Of a stretch of DNA of 64,000 nucleotides, positions 2,611 through 7,929 are shown in pieces. Source of the stretch: a bacterium (GTDB lineage: Bacteria; Patescibacteriota; Saccharimonadia; Saccharimonadales; AWTP1-31); assembly GCA_030426125.1 (NCBI GenBank), contig JAUHZB010000002.1:67633-131632 (forward strand), given 5' to 3'. The stretch's first letter is position 1, and every line of letters starts with the position of its first letter. The position numbers and the translations under genes are program-made. The notes under the pieces are model-generated. The model was given only the letters and a program-made list of their open reading frames with translations. It was not told the DNA's origin and did not search any database.

Positions 2611-2639
2611 ATTTTACCTCTGTTGGGGTGGTTTGTCAA
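2611..2639 (-). promoter_or_regulatory. promoter of rplJ-rplL
   Basis: Minus strand TTGACA (2634-2639), 17 nt, TAAAAT (2611-2616). Confidence 0.6.
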
Positions 2640-2670: not shown

Positions 2671-4194
2671 TTACAAGAATAATTCTATACTCTCTGAATC
2701 GACTTTGTGGTACTCATAATTAGTAGCTTTTAAAGATTCTTTTAATTCTGACCAGTCATTTCCCCTAAAGCCAATTAGTACCCGGCCTTTATCGGCACCT
2801 AGTCCGCGGTAATGGAACAAGCTGATGCTCCATTTCTGACTAATGGTGTCTAGGAACTTTAGCAACGCCCCTGGTTTCTCTGGAAAATTGACTTCCAGTA
2901 TCATCTCTTGATTTTTATCTTTACTTGGGCCACCAACCATATGTCTGATATGCTCTTTGGCAATTTCATCCAGGGTTAGATCATAGTAATTGTATCGATG
3001 CTTTGTTAGGTTAGCGATTAATTGGTTCTTGTCTTCTGCTTGATTTAAGTTAATCCCGATTAGTATAACTGCTTTGTCCTTGGTTGACTGGCTGGCTTTA
3101 TAGCGGTAGCTAAATTCACTAATTGAAAAACCATTAATTACGTCAAGACAAAGTTTTCTCAGGCTCCCGGCTTTTTCTGGTAGCTCAATAGCAAACAAAG
3201 CTTCTTTGCCGCTACCTATAAGTGTTCGCTCGGCTATGAACTGGAGCCTTTCAAAAGTCATGTTGGCTCCAGATAAAATACAGGCCACTTGCTTATTCTT
3301 CTCGGATTTAAGTTCAGAAAAGTATTTTGTGGCCCCAGCTACTGACAGAGCTCCAGCCGGCTCCACAATTGCTCGACTGTCTTCAAAGATTGCTTTAATG
3401 GCGGCACAGACTTGATCTACACTGACCGTGATTATTTCATCTACATATTGTTTGGCTAGTTGGTAAGTTAAGTCCCCAACTTGCTTAACTGCTACACCGT
3501 CAGCAAAAATACCGACATGGTCTAGCTGTAGTCTTTTATTTGTCGCAAGTGACTGTTGCATGGCATTACTGTCAGCCGGCTCAACGCCTATTACTTTTAT
3601 ATCTGGTCTCTTCTTTTTAACGTATTCTGCGACTCCAGCGATTAGTCCTCCGCCACCAACGGGGACGAAAATATAGTCAAGATCTGGGTGTTGCTCTAAG
3701 AGTTCTTTGGCTACCGTGGCTTGTCCATCAATAACCATACGGTCATCAAAGGGATGAATAAAAGTCATAGGACTGGCTTTCATTAGTTCTTGGCATTTTG
3801 CGTAGGCCTCGGAATAGTTATCGCCACTTAAGACTACTTTAGCCCCGTAGCTTTTTACAGCTTCAACTTTAATACTCGGCGTTGTTTCAGGCATCACTAT
3901 TACTGCTGGAATATCTAATTCCTTGGCACTTAAGGCCACGCCCTGAGCATGGTTGCCAGCACTGGCTGCAATTACTCCGGCCTTTTTCTGCTGATCACCC
4001 AGCGAAGCTATTTTGTTGTAGGCTCCTCTAATCTTGAAAGAGTGTATAGGCTGTAAGTCTTCACGCTTGAAATTTATTGATTGGCCAAGCTGCAAGCTTA
4101 GTTTGTTGACTTTTTGTAAGGGTGTTCTACTAACTAAATCATAAAAGCTCGGGTGAACTTTTAGAGCCGATTGTTGGGTCGATTGTTTTTTCAT
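2671..4194 (-). CDS. ilvA: threonine ammonia-lyase (threonine dehydratase), biosynthetic type with two C-terminal regulatory repeats
   Basis: 507 aa. PLP-lysine motif SFKIRGAYN, glycine loop VPVGGGGLIAG, and a long C-terminal region of two ACT-like repeats as in biosynthetic IlvA. Confidence 0.9.
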   Translation of the reverse strand: MKKQSTQQSALKVHPSFYDLVSRTPLQKVNKLSLQLGQSINFKREDLQPIHSFKIRGAYNKIASLGDQQKKAGVIAASAGNHAQGVALSAKELDIPAVIVMPETTPSIKVEAVKSYGAKVVLSGDNYSEAYAKCQELMKASPMTFIHPFDDRMVIDGQATVAKELLEQHPDLDYIFVPVGGGGLIAGVAEYVKKKRPDIKVIGVEPADSNAMQQSLATNKRLQLDHVGIFADGVAVKQVGDLTYQLAKQYVDEIITVSVDQVCAAIKAIFEDSRAIVEPAGALSVAGATKYFSELKSEKNKQVACILSGANMTFERLQFIAERTLIGSGKEALFAIELPEKAGSLRKLCLDVINGFSISEFSYRYKASQSTKDKAVILIGINLNQAEDKNQLIANLTKHRYNYYDLTLDEIAKEHIRHMVGGPSKDKNQEMILEVNFPEKPGALLKFLDTISQKWSISLFHYRGLGADKGRVLIGFRGNDWSELKESLKATNYEYHKVDSESIELFL

Positions 4195-4553
4195 AGTTTC
4201 TCAGCCACTGCCTCAATTTCCACCAATAGTTTATTATCTGCAACTCTAGGAAGTTCCTTAACACCAACGGTACTACGAGCTGGTCTACTTCCACTAGCCT
4301 CAAAAACTTCGGCGTAGACTTTATTCATAGCTTCAAAATCTTCAATATTGACTAAATAGACGGTTACTTTAATTACCTTAGATAAATCTGAGCCAGCTTG
4401 TTTAAGAACATCAGTTAGGTTTTGCAGGGCAAGTGTTGTTTGCTCGGTTATATTTTCTGGTGCTTTGCCTTCCTTAGCTCCAACTTGGCCAGCACTAAAT
4501 ACTAGATTTTTGCTATCTTGGTAACTTGCGTATGGTCCGTAAGTTTTTGGCAT
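4191..4553 (-). CDS. ridA: RidA/YjgF-family reactive enamine/imine deaminase
   Basis: ORF track gives 4191..4646. Start moved to ATG 4551-4553 (MPKTYGPY...) because GAAAGGAG lies 4 nt upstream and the longer version runs through a terminator hairpin. YjgF-family C-terminus (RPARSTVGV..LP...VEIEAVA). Its TGA stop overlaps the ilvA ATG (ATGA). Confidence 0.85.
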   Translation of the reverse strand: MPKTYGPYASYQDSKNLVFSAGQVGAKEGKAPENITEQTTLALQNLTDVLKQAGSDLSKVIKVTVYLVNIEDFEAMNKVYAEVFEASGSRPARSTVGVKELPRVADNKLLVEIEAVAEKL

Positions 4554-4603
4554 AGTTCTCCTTTCAATATTTGGTTTATTCTTGCTAGCTAAACTAGCTA
4601 AAC

Positions 4604-4632
4604 AAAAAAGACCTCTGCTTGGTAGAGAGGTC
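4604..4632 (-). terminator. attenuator terminator in the ridA-ilvA leader
   Basis: Minus strand GACCTCT-ctaccaagc-AGAGGTC followed by TTTTTT, about 50 nt upstream of the ridA Shine-Dalgarno site. Confidence 0.7.
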
Positions 4633-4656
4633 GTTTTATAAGACAATTAGCGACAT

Positions 4657-4707
4657 CTACCGCGTAAGCGGGTCAATAATGTCAATAATTGCTACTATTT
4701 TGTTCAT
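4657..4707 (-). CDS. putative attenuator leader peptide, Ile-rich (16 aa, MNKIVAIIDIIDPLTR)
   Basis: ATG 4705-4707 to TAG 4657-4659. 5 Ile and 1 Val in 16 codons (ATT ATT GAC ATT ATT GAC). No Shine-Dalgarno site; the ATG is 8 nt after a -10 box. The stop codon lies inside the antiterminator segment. Confidence 0.6.
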   Translation of the reverse strand: MNKIVAIIDIIDPLTR

Positions 4708-4715
4708 ACCTTAAG

Positions 4716-4743
4716 ATATTACTCTTTGTTCTGGCTCTGTCAA
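4716..4743 (-). promoter_or_regulatory. promoter driving the Ile leader peptide and ridA-ilvA
   Basis: Minus strand TTGACA (4738-4743), 16 nt, TAATAT (4716-4721), then 8 nt to the leader ATG. Confidence 0.6.
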
Positions 4744-5012
4744 GACAGTCGCCGTTGCTCAATGGTAAGTGGCTGAATATCTTGGTTGTAGTCGTCAGTT
4801 TTAAAAGGATGACCATCACGCCCACTGGCTAGGTGTTCACCAATTATTCTTAGTTCTGGTATTGTGCTGGCCAGATAATTTGAAATTTCCGGACAAACTA
4901 TTCGACCTGGATTAGATTCAGTTTGTATTGGTCTTTCCGGTACTTCGTCTAATCCAAAAGGATCGACTTCGCTAGTTCTCCAACCTAACCAACCATCAGG
5001 ATTTGCTTTCAT
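4740..5012 (-). CDS. hypothetical small protein (90 aa)
   Basis: ORF track gives 4740..5039. ATG 5010-5012 (MKANPDGWLGW...) is preferred because AAGGAG lies 9 nt upstream. No family recognised. TGA stop. Confidence 0.5.
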   Translation of the reverse strand: MKANPDGWLGWRTSEVDPFGLDEVPERPIQTESNPGRIVCPEISNYLASTIPELRIIGEHLASGRDGHPFKTDDYNQDIQPLTIEQRRLS

Positions 5013-5061
5013 CTTTCTTTGCTCCTTTATTCTTATCAATTATTATCTTATCTGAATTATT

Positions 5062-5355
5062 CTAGATGCCTTGGCTTAATGGATCTATAGTTCTAGTACT
5101 TTGGATATCACTACTCTGTGTTTGCTGTAATGCTTCATCGATTGGCGTAGCAGTCATTGAGTAGCCAACTTCACTATCATGAATTAACTCTAATACAACA
5201 GTTGGTCCAACAATTATCCCTTTATTAGCTAATGTTTGATATACCTCAGTAATAACCTCACCGCTATAATCTTGTCCATTAAAATAGACATCTTCAGCTA
5301 TCTCTTCGAAGATTATTGGGTATTTTCGTTCTAATTGTTCAATGTCTTGGCTCAT
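5062..5355 (-). CDS. hypothetical small acidic protein (97 aa)
   Basis: ORF track ORF. AAAGGAA Shine-Dalgarno site about 7 nt upstream of the ATG. First gene after the Leu/Ile/Val attenuator. No family recognised. Confidence 0.55.
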   Translation of the reverse strand: MSQDIEQLERKYPIIFEEIAEDVYFNGQDYSGEVITEVYQTLANKGIIVGPTVVLELIHDSEVGYSMTATPIDEALQQTQSSDIQSTRTIDPLSQGI

Positions 5356-5373
5356 TAAATATTCCTTTAAGTT

Positions 5374-5398
5374 AAAATTCAGGCTATTGAAGCCTGAA
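5374..5398 (-). terminator. attenuator terminator upstream of the 97-aa gene
   Basis: Minus strand TTCAGGCT-tcaat-AGCCTGAA followed by TTTT. Its left arm plus loop (TCAGGCTTCAAT) is perfectly complementary to 5429-5440. Confidence 0.65.
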
Positions 5399-5428
5399 CT
5401 ATGTGGGCTGTGTTGGCGTTAGTAACGC

Positions 5429-5542
5429 TCAGGCTTCAATATATTTTGGACACAGCCCTTTAAGATTAAGAATATCTAAAACCAGCAGCAGATTATTGCT
5501 TCCGTACGCGACGATCCGATTAGCTGTTGCTGTGTTATGCAT
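5429..5542 (-). CDS. putative attenuator leader peptide, Leu/Ile/Val-rich (37 aa)
   Basis: ATG 5540-5542 to TGA 5429-5431: MHNTATANRIVAYGSNNLLLVLDILNLKGLCPKYIEA. 7 Leu, 3 Ile, 2 Val. No Shine-Dalgarno site; the ATG is 7 nt after an extended -10. The last four codons (ATT GAA GCC TGA) form the antiterminator segment. Confidence 0.55.
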   Translation of the reverse strand: MHNTATANRIVAYGSNNLLLVLDILNLKGLCPKYIEA

Positions 5543-5549
5543 CAGTACT

Positions 5550-5578
5550 GTTATAGCACGACGTTTAATCGACCGCAA
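5550..5578 (-). promoter_or_regulatory. promoter of the Leu/Ile/Val leader transcription unit
   Basis: Minus strand TTGCGG (5573-5578), 17 nt, TGcTATAAC (5550-5558), then 7 nt to the leader ATG. Confidence 0.55.
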
Positions 5579-5601
5579 TAGCTAATAGAAAGCCTACTTC
5601 G

Positions 5602-7929
5602 CTAATTTATTTGCTGAAGTTTGAACTGGGTATATTTTTCAGCTGCAAGTCTGGTTAGTTCGGCGTCTTCGGAGGTGTTAACAAAACGCATCGCTTCAGC
5701 CAGCATTGGGTGTTGCTCGGCCAGCTTTTGATGCATCTGCATTACGAGTTTACGGTATCCGGGGTGGCCTTGAGGGCTAGTTCTTAGTTCATGCAGATGG
5801 AATGCTTCACGGGCATTGTAGGTTATCTTCCAGCGCATTTTATGCCCAAGTAAAGTAGCGTACTGTGCTTCGATCTCGTATCCAGCACTTATTAACTGGC
5901 TATGCAGGTTGAGGCTTAGGTCGAAGCAATCTTGGAATAGTTCTTCTAGTCCAGCTTCCTCTACTAGTTCTGGAACTTCATAACCATAGCGAGGGGTCAA
6001 TGCTTGCCACTCTAGATCATCAACCATTCTGTGTCGTTGTAGGTCTCTAAATATTCCGTAGTCGCACATTAGATCCCAGCTATAGTGAGCTTTTTCTAAA
6101 GCTCGACCCGGTTTGTGACGACGATTTAATCTTTCACCCATGTATTTATTAAATACTTCAGTTTTTTGCTTATAGCTCCATTTACTTACTTCCTGCTCTA
6201 TTTCAGCTAATGAAAGATGGCTGTGTTCATAGAGCATGTCCGGTAGTAGGTCTAGCTCGTTCTTTGGCCAGCAATCACTTAAGACCACTGCTTCATCCTG
6301 TTGACCATAATTTGGAGGTAGGTATTTATCGGCAACCTCTTGCATAGCCGAGTGGGTGTTGGCTCGGTAAGCAATTATGGCTCCGCCACGATCTGGTCGG
6401 TCGGCTCGCTCTAGGAAGGTTGGAATAATCTTCCGGGCTTCTTGCAGTAGTCGGTCTCCAGTCTGGACTGCTTCTGGTAGCTTATCGCTTTGCAGGTGCA
6501 TAATTAAACTTTCTAGAGCTTGACCTGAGGCGTAGATACCAACTGTAGCTTTAGTGGCTACCGGCAACACTGGCCTGATAGCATCACAGGCTTGGGCTCT
6601 AGTGGCACCTTTCCAAGCGATATCTTGCTCTTCTTTTGGGGTGCTAGAGTTACTTCGTACATAGTCGGTTAATTTTCTAACCATTTCAGAGTATTTGTCG
6701 AAAATGGTGTCCATTGTTTTAACGTAGCTTTGCTTAATGTCTTCGCTGAAGTGATCCGGCACTAGGTATTTATATTTGCCATCTTTATCTTTCTGATCAA
6801 AGTAGATATAGCGAGTCGATTGTTCTAGGTAAGCTGCTAATCTTCCCCACTCTAGTTTCTTGGTTAGTAGGTTAGATGCATTTTCAACTACCAGGTGGAT
6901 ACCAACTAATTGTTGAACGGAATCATCGCCGTAAGCAGTAATTACTCTTTGCAGTAGCTTTTCATCCTTAGAGGTTTTTCCGGCGAATTCATCAAGCAGG
7001 GTTATACGCATATCGTCACCACGACGACTTAGTCTAGCCATGGCGGCGGCTATCATGGTGGTGCTTAGATTGTCAGTGAAAGCATAGACATTGTCTTGAT
7101 TATTGGTCACAGATTTGTTTAAGAATTGCTCACCGGCAGTGGTAATAGTGTATTCACCAGTGCTGGCTTTTAGTAGTAACGGTCCTTGGTTATCTTCTGC
7201 TATTTTCGACTTTTCTTTAGTTGGTAGTATTGGCAAAACAGTCTCCCATAGTAAGTTATTAATTGTTTCAATATCTAATAATTCTCCGCCTCGTACGCAA
7301 TCGATTTGCTGGAAGTCTTCGGGGAACATGCTACATAGATCATCATATACCTGTACAGACTTAGTTAGGTGGTTAAGATCAGCTTCGTGGATGTCACGTT
7401 TTTTATCGGTGTAATCACGTTTTTCTTTTTGATCAACCAGCTTTTGGGCTGTTTCAGCCGGTACTCGAAGCACAATATTGCGATCTGGCCTAGGGATCTT
7501 TAGCATTTCAAACTCAAGGTTATCTAGCCAAATAAAGTAGCCTTTTCTTTCCTGCTGGTTATTGAACTTAGTTCCTTGATGAGCCATGTTACTGCCAGTA
7601 AAGCGATTGGCCAAAACAATATGGCCTTTATCCAGTGCGGCTCGTATTTCGGGCGCTGCTTGGTAGCGATCTAAGGCATAGAACAAAGAGCCGGTGTAGG
7701 GTCCGACCTCTTCAGCGGTGCCGTATTTAGCATTTAAATACTCCCGGACAAAGAAACTAGATTCGTTTTGGTACTGTGGGAAGTCAAAAACAGACACTGG
7801 AAAGCCATTATCCTCCAAGCGTTTTTTTAGCAGTTTAAACTGAGTGCCCTTTCCGGAACCATCAGTTCCTTCAATAACTATGAACACTCCGTTGTCTTTG
7901 TTGTCGTTGGTTTGACTATTTTGCTTCAT
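5602..7929 (-). CDS. fusion protein: dTMP kinase (N-terminal) + tandem-repeat flavin-dependent thymidylate synthase ThyX-like (C-terminal)
   Basis: 775 aa. Residues about 1-230 look like thymidylate kinase (P-loop FIVIEGTDGSGKGTQ). The rest holds two ThyX-like halves (..ARLSRRG...EQSTRY.. and ..FRDLQRHRMV...LTPRYGY..), matching ThyX RHR and S-x-RY type motifs. Confidence 0.75.
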   Translation of the reverse strand: MKQNSQTNDNKDNGVFIVIEGTDGSGKGTQFKLLKKRLEDNGFPVSVFDFPQYQNESSFFVREYLNAKYGTAEEVGPYTGSLFYALDRYQAAPEIRAALDKGHIVLANRFTGSNMAHQGTKFNNQQERKGYFIWLDNLEFEMLKIPRPDRNIVLRVPAETAQKLVDQKEKRDYTDKKRDIHEADLNHLTKSVQVYDDLCSMFPEDFQQIDCVRGGELLDIETINNLLWETVLPILPTKEKSKIAEDNQGPLLLKASTGEYTITTAGEQFLNKSVTNNQDNVYAFTDNLSTTMIAAAMARLSRRGDDMRITLLDEFAGKTSKDEKLLQRVITAYGDDSVQQLVGIHLVVENASNLLTKKLEWGRLAAYLEQSTRYIYFDQKDKDGKYKYLVPDHFSEDIKQSYVKTMDTIFDKYSEMVRKLTDYVRSNSSTPKEEQDIAWKGATRAQACDAIRPVLPVATKATVGIYASGQALESLIMHLQSDKLPEAVQTGDRLLQEARKIIPTFLERADRPDRGGAIIAYRANTHSAMQEVADKYLPPNYGQQDEAVVLSDCWPKNELDLLPDMLYEHSHLSLAEIEQEVSKWSYKQKTEVFNKYMGERLNRRHKPGRALEKAHYSWDLMCDYGIFRDLQRHRMVDDLEWQALTPRYGYEVPELVEEAGLEELFQDCFDLSLNLHSQLISAGYEIEAQYATLLGHKMRWKITYNAREAFHLHELRTSPQGHPGYRKLVMQMHQKLAEQHPMLAEAMRFVNTSEDAELTRLAAEKYTQFKLQQIN

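Follow-up and report, generated by a model that had tools for sequence, protein, structure and literature searches.

Background

Leader-peptide attenuation is a textbook mechanism, and its enterobacterial examples, the leu, ilvGMEDA, ilvBN and trp attenuators, follow the Yanofsky-type model of 1:2, 2:3 and 3:4 pairings. Leaderless short ORFs reportedly act as attenuators too, as in the polycysteine uORFs of mycobacteria. [quoted passage not shown]

We analyzed a 64-kb stretch of DNA (hereafter, “the window”) from a Candidatus Saccharibacteria genome, in which an earlier note, made from the sequence alone, had described a Leu/Ile/Val-rich leader and a terminator/antiterminator switch on the minus strand, ahead of two ORFan genes. 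Saccharibacteria are episymbionts, usually of Actinobacteria, and are commonly regarded as reliant on the host for amino acids. A search of the accessible literature on Patescibacteria/CPR found no report of leader-peptide attenuation. Our analysis shows that the element is very probably a ribosome-mediated transcription attenuator that senses the charging of branched-chain, mainly leucyl, tRNA. The family of switches to which it belongs is undescribed, while the attenuation mechanism itself is familiar.

Results and discussion

Layout of the element in the window

Every element listed in the earlier note can be read directly in the sequence, on the minus strand, where that note had placed it. 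The promoter consists of a weak -35 box, TTGCGG (5573-5578, with three of six consensus matches), a 17-nt spacer and an extended -10 box, TGcTATAAC (5550-5558), which ends 7 nt before the leader ATG (5542-5540). There is no Shine-Dalgarno site before this ATG, and the 7-nt distance from the -10 box implies a leaderless transcript that starts at or adjoining the AUG. The sequence CTATTGCG of the -35 region is kept in three relatives (L001, L002 and L079), and most relatives carry TTGACA or TTGTCA at the equal offset.

The leader ORF (5429-5542) has 37 codons, MHNTATANRIVAYGSNNLLLVLDILNLKGLCPKYIEA, followed by a UGA stop at 5431-5429. Leu, Ile and Val account for 12 of its 37 residues, compared with ~22% in the long ORFs of the window; this enrichment alone is modest, and it is the comparative evidence presented below that is decisive for an attenuator. 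The Leu codons are biased to CTG, a minor codon. We assign the regulatory codon run to codons 18-30 (LLLVLDILNLKGL, 5453-5491) on the basis of masked folding and of a three-base conservation periodicity in the equivalent columns of the family; within this run, Leu27 occupies 5464-5462 and Leu30 occupies 5455-5453. The window leader carries an 11-codon insertion, and the leader of L002 and L003 differs from it by an in-frame 33-nt deletion.

The RNA that follows contains segments with competing partners. The 5’ arm of the anti-antiterminator helix P1 (GGGCUGUGU, 5450-5458), which spans codons Gly29-Leu30-Cys31, forms 9 bp with a 3’ arm (ACACAGCCC, 5405-5413), a pairing seen in the predicted fold and in family covariation. 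Enclosed by P1 are region 2 (UAUUGAAGCCUGA, 5429-5441), the 5’ strand of the antiterminator, which takes in the final codons of the leader together with its UGA stop, and a hairpin, P3 (GCGUU-ACU-AACGC, 5416-5428), recovered in the fold and replaced at the same place in relatives by hairpins of different sequence. An intrinsic terminator (5374-5398) stands beyond P1 and is composed of UUCAGGCU (5398-5391), the loop ucaau, AGCCUGAA (5385-5378) and UUUU (5377-5374); its stem of 8-10 bp contains GC pairs, and the U4 is 18 nt before the ATG of the first ORFan gene. The 5’ arm and loop of this terminator are at the same time region 3 (UCAGGCUUCAAUA, 5385-5397), the 3’ strand of the antiterminator, as indicated by complementarity and family covariation. 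Regions 2 and 3 pair perfectly over 13 nt in the window, so the 12 nt given earlier were one too few.

The family bears out the enclosing helix as the anti-antiterminator, and in most members an extra hairpin (GCUUCAG/UUGAAGC) also sequesters the antiterminator strand directly. The window copy is without this 1:2 hairpin (UCCAAA in place of UUGAAG), so that region 2 is unpaired inside P1 and only the enclosing helix is left, which would exclude the antiterminator by topology or kinetics only. P1 and the antiterminator could coexist as a pseudoknot in the window copy, and the switch may be leaky there.

For the 100-nt core (5366-5465), the predicted folding energy is -33.8 kcal/mol, versus -16.5 ± 3.3 kcal/mol for shuffled sequences (z = -5.24, with 0/200 as good), and the 194-nt stretch reaches z = -3.7 against shuffles. 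Folded separately, the antiterminator hairpin, the terminator hairpin and the P1 domain have energies of -22.7, -13.1 and -20.3 kcal/mol. A simple promoter/terminator scanner missed both signals in the window, because only 3/6 positions of the -35 box match the consensus and the U-run can be drawn into the terminator stem. The 64-kb window contains a single instance of the motif GGGCTGTG-N8-16-TTGAAGCC, none of 100 shuffles contains any, and the family covariance model also finds one copy in the window, at 5370-5506.

A family of related loci

Among 82 related genome loci, 46 contain the element; nhmmer and a covariance model (R1) located it at 47 places in 83 sources. A three-block DNA pattern retrieved at least 120 metagenome contigs with the element, and R1 scored 57-123 bits in every one of the 100 contigs searched with it. 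The total is at least 165 loci, drawn from genomes and from soil, rhizosphere, sediment and wastewater metagenomes. Across relatives, the usual place of the element is between tmk-thyX and rplJ; in the genome loci, all copies lie on the tmk-thyX strand, downstream of tmk-thyX. In the window, the thyX stop is at 5602, no terminator was detected between it and the element, and the wider neighborhood is L11-L1...L10-L7/L12. A further attenuator, of the Ile type, stands past the two ORFan genes and before ridA-ilvA.

The ribosomal protein genes nearby, together with a conserved three-way junction, are what one might expect of a leader RNA that binds a protein or a ligand (an L10 leader, a T-box or a riboswitch). 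However, Rfam gave nothing at gathering score for the window copy and no match at E <= 10 that overlaps 5370-5578, the weak matches within 4100-5900 being to unrelated families outside the element; for six typical members searched at E <= 1, the only overlap was a 24.6-bit chance match to Atu_C8. The L10 leader itself (RF00557) is found apart from the element, at a separate site directly upstream of rplJ in two loci (L155 and L152, 56-58 bits) and weakly in the window (23 bits) at 2513-2615 rather than at 5370-5542. Codon periodicity and a fixed reading frame are also unexpected of a riboswitch, and we regard a binding leader RNA as exceedingly improbable.

Covariation and codon constraint

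In the terminator conformation (P1, the 1:2 hairpin and the terminator), 94% of cells are paired and 12 of 21 pairs have changed on both sides, as counted in an alignment that was fitted to the terminator model. No shuffle out of 500 was as good, and controls in which the pairing was slid gave 33-48%. For P1, 98.9% of the cells in 47 sequences are paired and four of its eight pairs show both-side changes; for the terminator helix the figures are 88.5% and six of seven pairs. The antiterminator pairing was outside the fitted model; it is nevertheless paired in 87.9% of cells, versus 80.1% when shuffled and 18-46% when slid, and in 85.7% in the metagenome set. Both-side changes occur in 9 of its 13 pairs, amounting to 42 cells versus 13.9 expected, compensatory changes by which the pairing is kept. 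Two of the covarying column pairs, 76-174 (GC 18 / UA 10) and 77-173 (GC 30 / AU 8), connect the loop of the 1:2 hairpin with the loop of the terminator and are explained by the antiterminator only.

The constraint on the leader ORF has a different character along its length. The ORF is always in frame, almost every member has its ATG 14-19 codons upstream of P1, and a Leu or an Ile/Val run stands at a fixed distance from P1 across the family. Leaders are 20-30 codons long across the family (20-37 with the window included), and the stop falls inside region 2 or 1-8 codons past it, that of the window being the last triplet of region 2. Within the Leu/Ile run, entropy is 0-0.66 at second codon positions and 0.9-1.5 at third positions, whereas inside P1 the third positions are near-invariant (0-0.26); this pattern points to selection on the amino acids in the run and on the RNA in P1. 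Upstream is a sigma-70-type promoter, and in 126 of 153 members its best -10 box stops 6-10 nt short of the leader ATG, with a family score of 9.3/12 versus 7.4 in shuffles; a tetramer resembling a Shine-Dalgarno site precedes the ATG in only 6 of the 153. Comparison with ~165 loci thus supports the core of the reading made for the window: a leaderless, Leu/Ile/Val-rich leader ORF, a stop codon within an antiterminator strand in competition with the intrinsic terminator, and an enclosing helix that acts as anti-antiterminator. The frame and stop position of the ORF are kept even across the in-frame 33-nt indel, and the promoter has a fixed position relative to the ATG.

These data also bear on the idea that the ORF is simply a gene for a small hydrophobic protein that ends in an ordinary terminator, the alternative pairing being incidental. 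The ORF is indeed conserved and has its own promoter before it and a terminator after it. But region 2 and its upstream flank covary with the bases of the terminator loop, third codon positions are near-invariant in P1 and in regions 1 and 2, and every locus has a terminator followed by a strong Shine-Dalgarno site and a gene. The type of run is, moreover, associated with the downstream gene (see below), and there is next to no chance that such a protein gene is all that is present. Rfam, covariation and codon evidence led us to reject the L10 leader, riboswitch, T-box and small-protein readings.

Run type and the downstream gene

The first gene past the element is LeuA-like (HMGL-like + HCS_D2) in 14 loci, and other loci have ilvB-ilvN-ridA-ilvA downstream. 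A Leu-type run is followed by a LeuA-like gene in 13 of 13 cases, and 11 of 12 Ile/Val-type runs stand before ilvB, ridA or ilvA (Fisher p = 2.7e-6, a value that ignores shared ancestry). One locus (L059) has a Leu-type and an Ile/Val-type element in tandem. In the family, the type of codon run goes with the biosynthetic gene downstream, in support of the branched-chain sensing proposed for the element.

This association also helps to separate supply of particular amino acids from translation stress in general. Inducible resistance gene leaders respond to ribosome stalling, and the mechanism discussed here needs only a ribosome arrested before or in P1, so that whatever arrests the ribosome, antibiotics and global starvation included, could open the switch irrespective of Leu/Ile supply; the cargo is non-biosynthetic in most loci, and the C-terminal GLCF..VEA of the leader peptide is conserved across the family. 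The run is nonetheless Leu-rich or Ile/Val-rich according to whether the cargo is leuA-like or ilvBN/ilvA, none of the genes seen past the element is of a resistance type, and the conservation of GLCF..VEA reaches synonymous positions and coincides with the helices, which means that RNA structure explains it. We consider a general stress attenuator very unlikely.

Ribosome modelling and proposed mechanism

For the window, footprint modelling places Leu27 and Leu30 so as to open P1, whereas Leu25 is marginal and the LLL run (codons 18-20) is too far upstream to affect P1. Of the two stall codons named in the earlier note, Leu27 is thus retained, Leu25 becomes doubtful and Leu30 is added. In masked folding of the window RNA, even at full length, the antiterminator has the lowest energy when the A site occupies Leu27 or Leu30. 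Ribosome-masked equilibrium folding of full-length leaders otherwise had little discriminating power, since the terminator prevails as soon as region 4 is included; transcripts ended at region 3 were more informative. With a ribosome at the stop codon, only 1 of 44 such transcripts has the antiterminator as its minimum-energy fold, compared with 41-42 of 44 when the A site is at codons -1 to +1 from the start of P1. When no ribosome is present, 30 of the 44 still favor the antiterminator at equilibrium, and the untranslated off state would therefore depend on folding kinetics.

From these features we infer the transcription start site, leader translation, stalling, termination and read-through that make up the following scheme. 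Transcription from the extended -10 promoter would start at or adjoining the AUG, and the 37-codon leader would be translated as a leaderless ORF. With ample charged tRNA, the ribosome would reach the UGA at the 3’ end of region 2 and cover region 2, leaving region 3 to pair with region 4; the terminator (5398-5374) would form, and the polymerase would halt before the first ORFan gene. On RNA that carries no ribosome, P1 would close around region 2 and the terminator would again form. Read-through RNA from tmk-thyX would count as ribosome-free, as its AUG is internal and without a Shine-Dalgarno site. A ribosome stalled at Leu/Ile codons just before or in the 5’ arm of P1 (Leu27, Leu30) would block P1 and free region 2, which could then pair with region 3 over 13 bp and pre-empt the terminator. 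Both ORFan genes would be transcribed, and read-through transcription would proceed towards the second, Ile-type attenuator before ridA-ilvA.

The two ORFan genes

The two genes predicted from the sequence to be under control of the switch are on the minus strand and encode proteins of 97 aa (5062-5355, Shine-Dalgarno AAAGGAA at 5368-5362) and 90 aa (4740-5012, AAAGGAG before the ATG at 5012); there is no terminator between the 90-aa gene and the next promoter. Neither these proteins nor the 37-aa leader product has a match in Pfam or NCBIfam. A word-indexed homology search found one relative for each of the two proteins, and phmmer, run exhaustively against 1.8 billion representatives, returned four matches. 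One of the four, to a 4059-aa pentapeptide-repeat protein, was judged spurious, having aligned through the repeats. A profile of the 97-aa protein found seven relatives; the protein belongs to a small family, confined to Saccharibacteria, that has invariant residues and the C-terminal motif DP(I/L)(A/S)QG(I/V). The sole homologue found for the 90-aa protein is 51-52% identical and occurs in L002/L003, where the two ORFans are 24% and ~52% identical to those of the window and the element is retained. AlphaFold2 models of both are poor (pLDDT of 51.5 and 52.7), and a profile-profile comparison of the 97-aa family with a ‘..PYAGTE..NLPA’ ORFan family revealed no relationship.

As a conserved link, the suggestion that the ORFans form an amino-acid-linked module finds no support in this comparison: the pair occurs in L002 without ridA-ilvA, and unrelated, hypervariable ORFans fill the slot in other lineages, most loci having non-biosynthetic cargo. 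The two ORFans are fast-evolving and are not a conserved partner of ilv genes; the conserved part is the attenuator, not its cargo. As the window cargo is not biosynthetic, the usual codon-to-product logic is missing there. No leuA-like or ilvB remnants were detected by tblastn under the ORFans (4600-5400), and the whole 64-kb window lacks a leuA-like or ilvB gene.

One way to account for such cargo is that the window copy is a relic, inherited from a leuA/ilv operon whose biosynthetic gene was replaced by ORFans, and that it now serves mainly as a terminator for dcd-tmk-thyX plus a weak, partly constitutive promoter-leader, with no adaptive control by amino acids. The missing 1:2 hairpin, the -35 box with 3/6 matches, the 11-codon insertion in the leader, the stretch from the thyX stop to the element with no terminator and the hypervariability of the cargo between lineages would all fit. 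However, the promoter, ATG, frame, stop position, P1, perfect 13-bp antiterminator and terminator are all intact in the window; the parts of the element are retained in L002/L003 despite the divergence of the ORFans; and the complete element persists in ~100 further loci whose cargo is ORFans. Retention of the element over diverged or ORFan cargo argues for continuing selection on the switch itself, and we think a relic improbable.

A functional attenuator might alternatively derive from leuA/ilv operons and have been co-opted to sense, in a general way, the branched-chain amino-acid supply of the host, switching on hypervariable, lineage-specific small proteins (the 97-aa and 90-aa ORFans here, the ‘..PYAGTE..NLPA’ family elsewhere). 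We offer this as speculation whose chances are low. The small proteins driven by the attenuator might act on the host or on the cell’s own starvation response, and co-option, if true, would tie nutrient sensing to symbiosis through a leader peptide.

Implications

The family is abundant, strongly conserved and easily modelled. For annotation, it provides a ready covariance model and a rule that separates Leu-type from Ile/Val-type leaders, and it draws attention to the little-noted fact that many environmental Saccharibacteria hold regulated leuA-like, ilvBN, ridA and ilvA genes in one tmk-thyX/rplJ slot. For biology, it offers a testable handle on amino-acid sensing by an ultra-small, host-dependent bacterium, and dozens of small ORFan families that have no other functional lead gain a regulatory signal.

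Comparison with known attenuators

The Saccharibacterial element has in common with the enterobacterial attenuators a regulatory codon run, a stop that would let the terminating ribosome mask region 2, 2:3 and 3:4 pairings that exclude each other, a predicted termination of untranslated transcripts and a preference for uncommon Leu codons. The enterobacterial leaders, on the other hand, have a Shine-Dalgarno site and a 5’ UTR, and the Rfam leader models fail on the Saccharibacterial element; the enclosing P1 is particular to the Saccharibacterial family, and the window copy is without the 1:2 hairpin. With S. aureus ilv-leu, it shares a Leu-rich leader and probable attenuation of branched-chain genes, although S. 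aureus belongs to another phylum and adds control by CodY, and the two were compared by Rfam match only. As in the leaderless short-ORF attenuators of Actinobacteria, the codon content of a leaderless ORF would set downstream expression. Relative to C. glutamicum ilvBNC, there is no similarity at the level of sequence or Rfam; the Saccharibacterial anti-antiterminator is a long-range helix that encloses the antiterminator strand by closing a three-way junction, the leader has 20-37 codons with its stop in that strand, and the cargo in the window is two ORFans. The two systems are alike in their leaderless start (predicted for the Saccharibacterial element), their short leader rich in branched-chain residues and their three competing structures.

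Organization of the element in the window

The element is intergenic, lying on the minus strand between the tmk::thyX fusion gene (5602-7929) and a 97-aa ORF (5062-5355). All of the parts reported in the earlier note are present on our reading. A -35 box, TTGCGG (5578-5573), is separated by 17 nt from TGcTATAAC (-10; 5558-5550), and the leader ATG (5542-5540) follows 7 nt later, without a Shine-Dalgarno site. It opens a leader ORF of 37 codons, MHNTATANRIVAYGSNNLLLVLDILNLKGLCPKYIEA, with its UGA at 5431-5429. The terminator, UUCAGGCU-ucaau-AGCCUGAA-UUUU, occupies 5398-5374. The antiterminator, previously described as a perfect 12-nt complement, is indeed perfect, and its length is 13 nt: the end of the ORF (5441-5429) pairs with the terminator 5' arm and loop (5397-5385). 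By complementarity, a 9-bp helix, P1 (5458-5450 with 5413-5405), encloses the antiterminator 5' strand and also a small hairpin (5428-5416). The 100-nt core folds at -33.8 kcal/mol, versus -16.5 +/- 3.3 for shuffles (z = -5.2). A simple promoter/terminator scanner lists neither the promoter, whose -35 box is weak, nor the terminator, whose stem can run on into its own U-run. An Rfam scan of the window gives no match at the element, and none of the curated RNA families matches it.

Two further complementarities are seen on this strand. The leader Asp-Ile-Leu codons (5470-5478) match the Shine-Dalgarno region of the 97-aa gene (5356-5364) over 9 nt (89%), a pairing that is part of the minimum-energy fold of the 194-nt RNA; family-wide, the CUC-rich Leu run (CUCCUC) is also complementary to the downstream AAGGAG. 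This could be an extra translational layer, or chance in AT-rich sequence. Near the start of the leader ORF, ACACAGC (5529-5535) is a second copy of the P1 3' arm sequence; it is able to base-pair with the P1 5' arm and takes part in the truncated transcript's minimum-energy fold. This repeat is confined to the window lineage, which also bears an 11-codon insertion.

A family of elements downstream of tmk::thyX

The first comparisons came from contigs bearing homologues of the two ORFans downstream of the element (97 aa, and 90 aa at 4740-5012). In two such loci, L002 and L003, identity to the window is 84% for tmk::thyX, about 52% for the 90-aa protein and only 24% for the 97-aa protein. Despite the diverged ORFans, their element retains the -35/-10 boxes, the ATG, GGGCTGTG, TATATTGAAGCCTGAGCG, AACACAGCCC and the terminator, and relative to the window the leader ORF carries an in-frame 33-nt deletion. 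R1, a covariance model built from 42 copies after an nhmmer search, gave 47 matches in 83 sources (5 outside the training set), every one on the same strand as tmk::thyX and 3' of it, with one copy in the 64-kb window. A three-block DNA pattern was found in at least 120 metagenome contigs, and R1 matched 100/100 of those searched at 57-123 bits.

The 775-aa product of the upstream gene is a thymidylate kinase fused to a ThyX (Thy1) domain, the latter in two matched stretches. The fusion is shared at 48-84% identity by about 80 Saccharibacteria genomes, always with dcd adjacent, in the L11-L1 ... L10-L7/L12 region. Scanning with the protein, with confirmation by tBLASTn, yielded 80 loci, nearly all labelled Candidatus Saccharibacteria / Saccharimonadales or unclassified Patescibacteria.

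From 5' to 3', family members consist of a promoter, an AUG with about 10-14 codons, and a hydrophobic run, typically CUC CUC CUC GGC CUU (LLLGL) or AUU AUU AUU CUC GGC CUA (IIILGL). One codon past the run comes GGGCUGUG, the P1 5' arm, read as Gly-Leu-Cys, then CUUCAG (region 1), a short loop and (GG)UUGAAGCC(UGA), which is region 2. A variable hairpin (P3), CACAGCCC (the P1 3' arm) and a linker lead to (UC)AGGCUUCAACC (region 3), GAAGCCUG with a U-run (region 4), and AAUUUAAGGAG, 5-8 nt before the gene start. Hairpins 1:2 and 3:4 have 2:3 as their alternative. The layout is thus a classical attenuator plus helix P1, the closing helix of a three-way junction that encloses 1:2 and P3.

Covariation of the two conformations

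In a model-derived alignment of 47 sequences, 94% of cells are paired in the terminator conformation (P1, 1:2 hairpin and terminator), and 12/21 pairs changed on both sides; 0/500 shuffles equalled this and slid controls reached 33-48%, although the alignment was fitted to this conformation and hence leans towards it. The antiterminator is absent from the model, and 87.9% of its cells are paired, versus 80.1% when shuffled and 18-46% when slid. Both-side changes affect 9/13 of its pairs (42 such cells versus 13.9 expected). Two of these pairs link the 1:2-hairpin loop to the terminator loop (GC 18 / UA 10; GC 30 / AU 8), a covariation for which the predicted antiterminator is the sole account. 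In three loci (L012, L014, L009), UUGAAGCC is replaced wholesale by CUGAGGCC, and GGCUUCAA correspondingly by GGCCUCAG. In the metagenome set, which is biased by the search pattern, at least 90% of sequences pair across the 10-bp antiterminator core, and for the full pairing the figure is 85.7%.

Probable translation of the leader ORF

The frame, start and stop position of the leader are conserved in about 165 loci, as would be expected of the translated leader proposed earlier. From the ATG to P1 there are 14-19 codons in nearly all loci, but the window lineage has 28. The stop falls within region 2 or up to 8 codons beyond, always 5' of the P1 3' arm. Within the hydrophobic run, entropy is 0-0.66 at second codon positions and 0.9-1.5 at third positions, and first positions exchange C and A (Leu/Ile); third positions in P1 are nearly invariant (0-0.26). 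It follows that the constraint on the run acts on its amino acids or codons, and that on the GLCF..VEA part acts on the RNA.

The best sigma-70-type promoter places the end of its -10 box 6-10 nt 5' of the ATG in 126/153 copies, and scores 9.3 of 12 versus 7.4 for shuffles. A Shine-Dalgarno-like tetramer precedes the ATG in only 6/153 copies. Together, the spacing and the rarity of Shine-Dalgarno sites imply that translation is probably leaderless. In the window clade the -35 box is weak, yet TGn precedes TATAAC in every member. Leu codons of the window leader avoid CTA, the main Leu codon (42% of genome Leu), and use CTG (12%) four times; family-wide, CTC makes up 47% of run codons versus 16% in tmk::thyX.

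Downstream genes and amino-acid specificity

Among 140 first-downstream ORFs, the largest homologous group (14 loci) is an HMGL-like + HCS_D2 protein of 388-427 aa, the catalytic part only, whose best NCBIfam matches are 2-isopropylmalate synthases, below equivalog cut-offs. At other loci ilvB, ilvN (ACT small subunit), ridA or ilvA lie immediately 3' of the element; in L055 the order is element, leuA-like, ridA, ilvA. Leaders are Leu-type before 13/13 leuA-like genes and Ile/Val-type before 11/12 ilvB/ridA/ilvA genes (Fisher p = 2.7e-6, with loci counted as independent despite shared ancestry). Such a match bears the signature of amino-acid-specific regulatory codons. Tandem element pairs occur in L059 (8936-9076 and 10301-10447) and L094 (10000-10143 and 10418-10563); in L059, the Leu-type copy stands before a leuA-like gene, the Ile/Val-type copy before an 87-aa ORF and ilvB.

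Many environmental Saccharibacteria have genes for the leuA-like protein (catalytic domain only), ilvB, ilvN, ridA and ilvA under these attenuators, often with an M20 peptidase alongside. Such genes occupy the variable slot between tmk-thyX and rplJ in L029, L033, L038, L054, L055, L059, L065, L097, L109, L131, L141 and others.

In the majority of copies, the cargo consists of small, fast-evolving ORFans (43-172 aa, largely BLAST singletons), followed by rplJ with its own L10 leader. The window's two ORFans have good Shine-Dalgarno sites and conserved residues among their few homologues, and are therefore probably real proteins. Homology searches found almost no homologues, and neither protein could be placed in a family, given a fold or linked to a remote homologue. 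The exact 97-aa product was not found in a 5.8-billion-protein collection (nearest 92% identical), which includes the neighbouring 90-aa product at 100%, from NCBI; the deposited annotation may therefore lack a call for the 97-aa gene. The proposal that the pair forms an amino-acid-linked module is weakened by L002, in which the same two ORFans are present but a SNF2-type helicase comes next and there is no ridA-ilvA, so the pair is not consistently linked to ilv genes.

A loose family of small acidic ORFans is the first gene past the element in L008, L009, L010, L012, L026, L036, L041, L048, L051, L062 and L071. Their C-terminal module is ..(I/V)PYAGTE.., about 15 residues, then terminal (N)LPA; window-type ORFans end in DP(I/L)(A/S)QG(I/V) instead, and hhalign found no relation between the two groups. 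The conserved extreme C-terminus suggests a possible docking or degradation tag.

A second attenuator before ridA-ilvA

The minus-strand order in the window is L1, dcd, tmk::thyX, element, 97 aa, 90 aa, a promoter with Ile-rich leader and terminator, ridA, ilvA, then a promoter with a weak L10-leader match, L10 and L7/L12. There is no terminator 3' of the 90-aa gene, whose stop overlaps the -35 box of the next unit (TTGACA, 4743-4738), and read-through RNA would therefore reach the second, Ile-type attenuator before ridA-ilvA. The window thus has two tandem attenuators on one transcription path. The second belongs to an unrelated family directly 5' of ridA-ilvA, with a TTGACA-type promoter, a leaderless Ile-rich leader and a GC-rich terminator (window 4610-4745, minus strand; L001 5920-6120; L079 3860-4010; L010 9505-9660; L025 9455-9610). 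Its leaders read MNKIVAIIDIIDPLTR in the window, MVKQSAIIEIIAPPKR in L079, MISMVKSLILGLIIINPESGTTA in L010 and MAQNLIIVARINPRGVRF in L025. Just 5' of rplJ are an 11/12 promoter match (TTGACA, 17 nt, TAAAAT; 2611-2639, minus strand) and a sub-threshold L10 leader (RF00557; 2513-2615, minus strand; 23.4 bits, E = 0.07) that is clear in the relatives L155 and L152 (56-58 bits); rplJL is therefore a separate unit.

Switching model

In the window, predicted energies are -22.7 kcal/mol for the antiterminator hairpin, -13.1 for the terminator and -20.3 for the P1 domain. We folded masked RNAs at equilibrium, assuming a ribosome footprint of -15 to +12 nt around the A site. The full-length window RNA forms P1 and the terminator when it bears no ribosome, when Ile24 or Leu25 is in the A site, or when the ribosome is at the stop; placing Leu27 or Leu30 in the A site switches it to the antiterminator. 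Of the two stall sites suggested earlier, Leu27 thus opens the switch in these folds and Leu25 leaves it closed.

Across the family, RNAs truncated at region 3 have the antiterminator as their minimum-energy fold in 1/44 members with a ribosome at the stop, in 19-21/44 when codons -6 and -5 occupy the A site, and in 41-42/44 for codons -1 to +1. The antiterminator is also favoured at equilibrium in 30/44 with no ribosome, so the untranslated off state must depend on earlier co-transcriptional folding, in which P1 and 1:2 would form first. In the window copy, hairpin 1:2 has been lost (UCCAAA versus UUGAAG), leaving only P1 to hold region 2, in keeping with the restraining role first proposed for this helix. 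In the model, P1 might truly exclude the 13-bp antiterminator or coexist with it as a pseudoknot, either being possible.

Comparison with known systems

Strong comparative evidence supports the attenuator interpretation, and the element represents a new family within a well-known class of switches. Our full-text literature search turned up no article describing attenuation in Saccharibacteria or Patescibacteria. The interest of the element is moderate, residing mainly in its host lineage and in the genes attached to the switch. Its logic is that of the enterobacterial leu/ilv/trp attenuators. The closest match is the Corynebacterium glutamicum ilvBNC attenuator, which is leaderless and has three hairpins (PMC11857589); leader peptides have also been reported in C. 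glutamicum for leuA, ilvB and trpE (PMC3890552).
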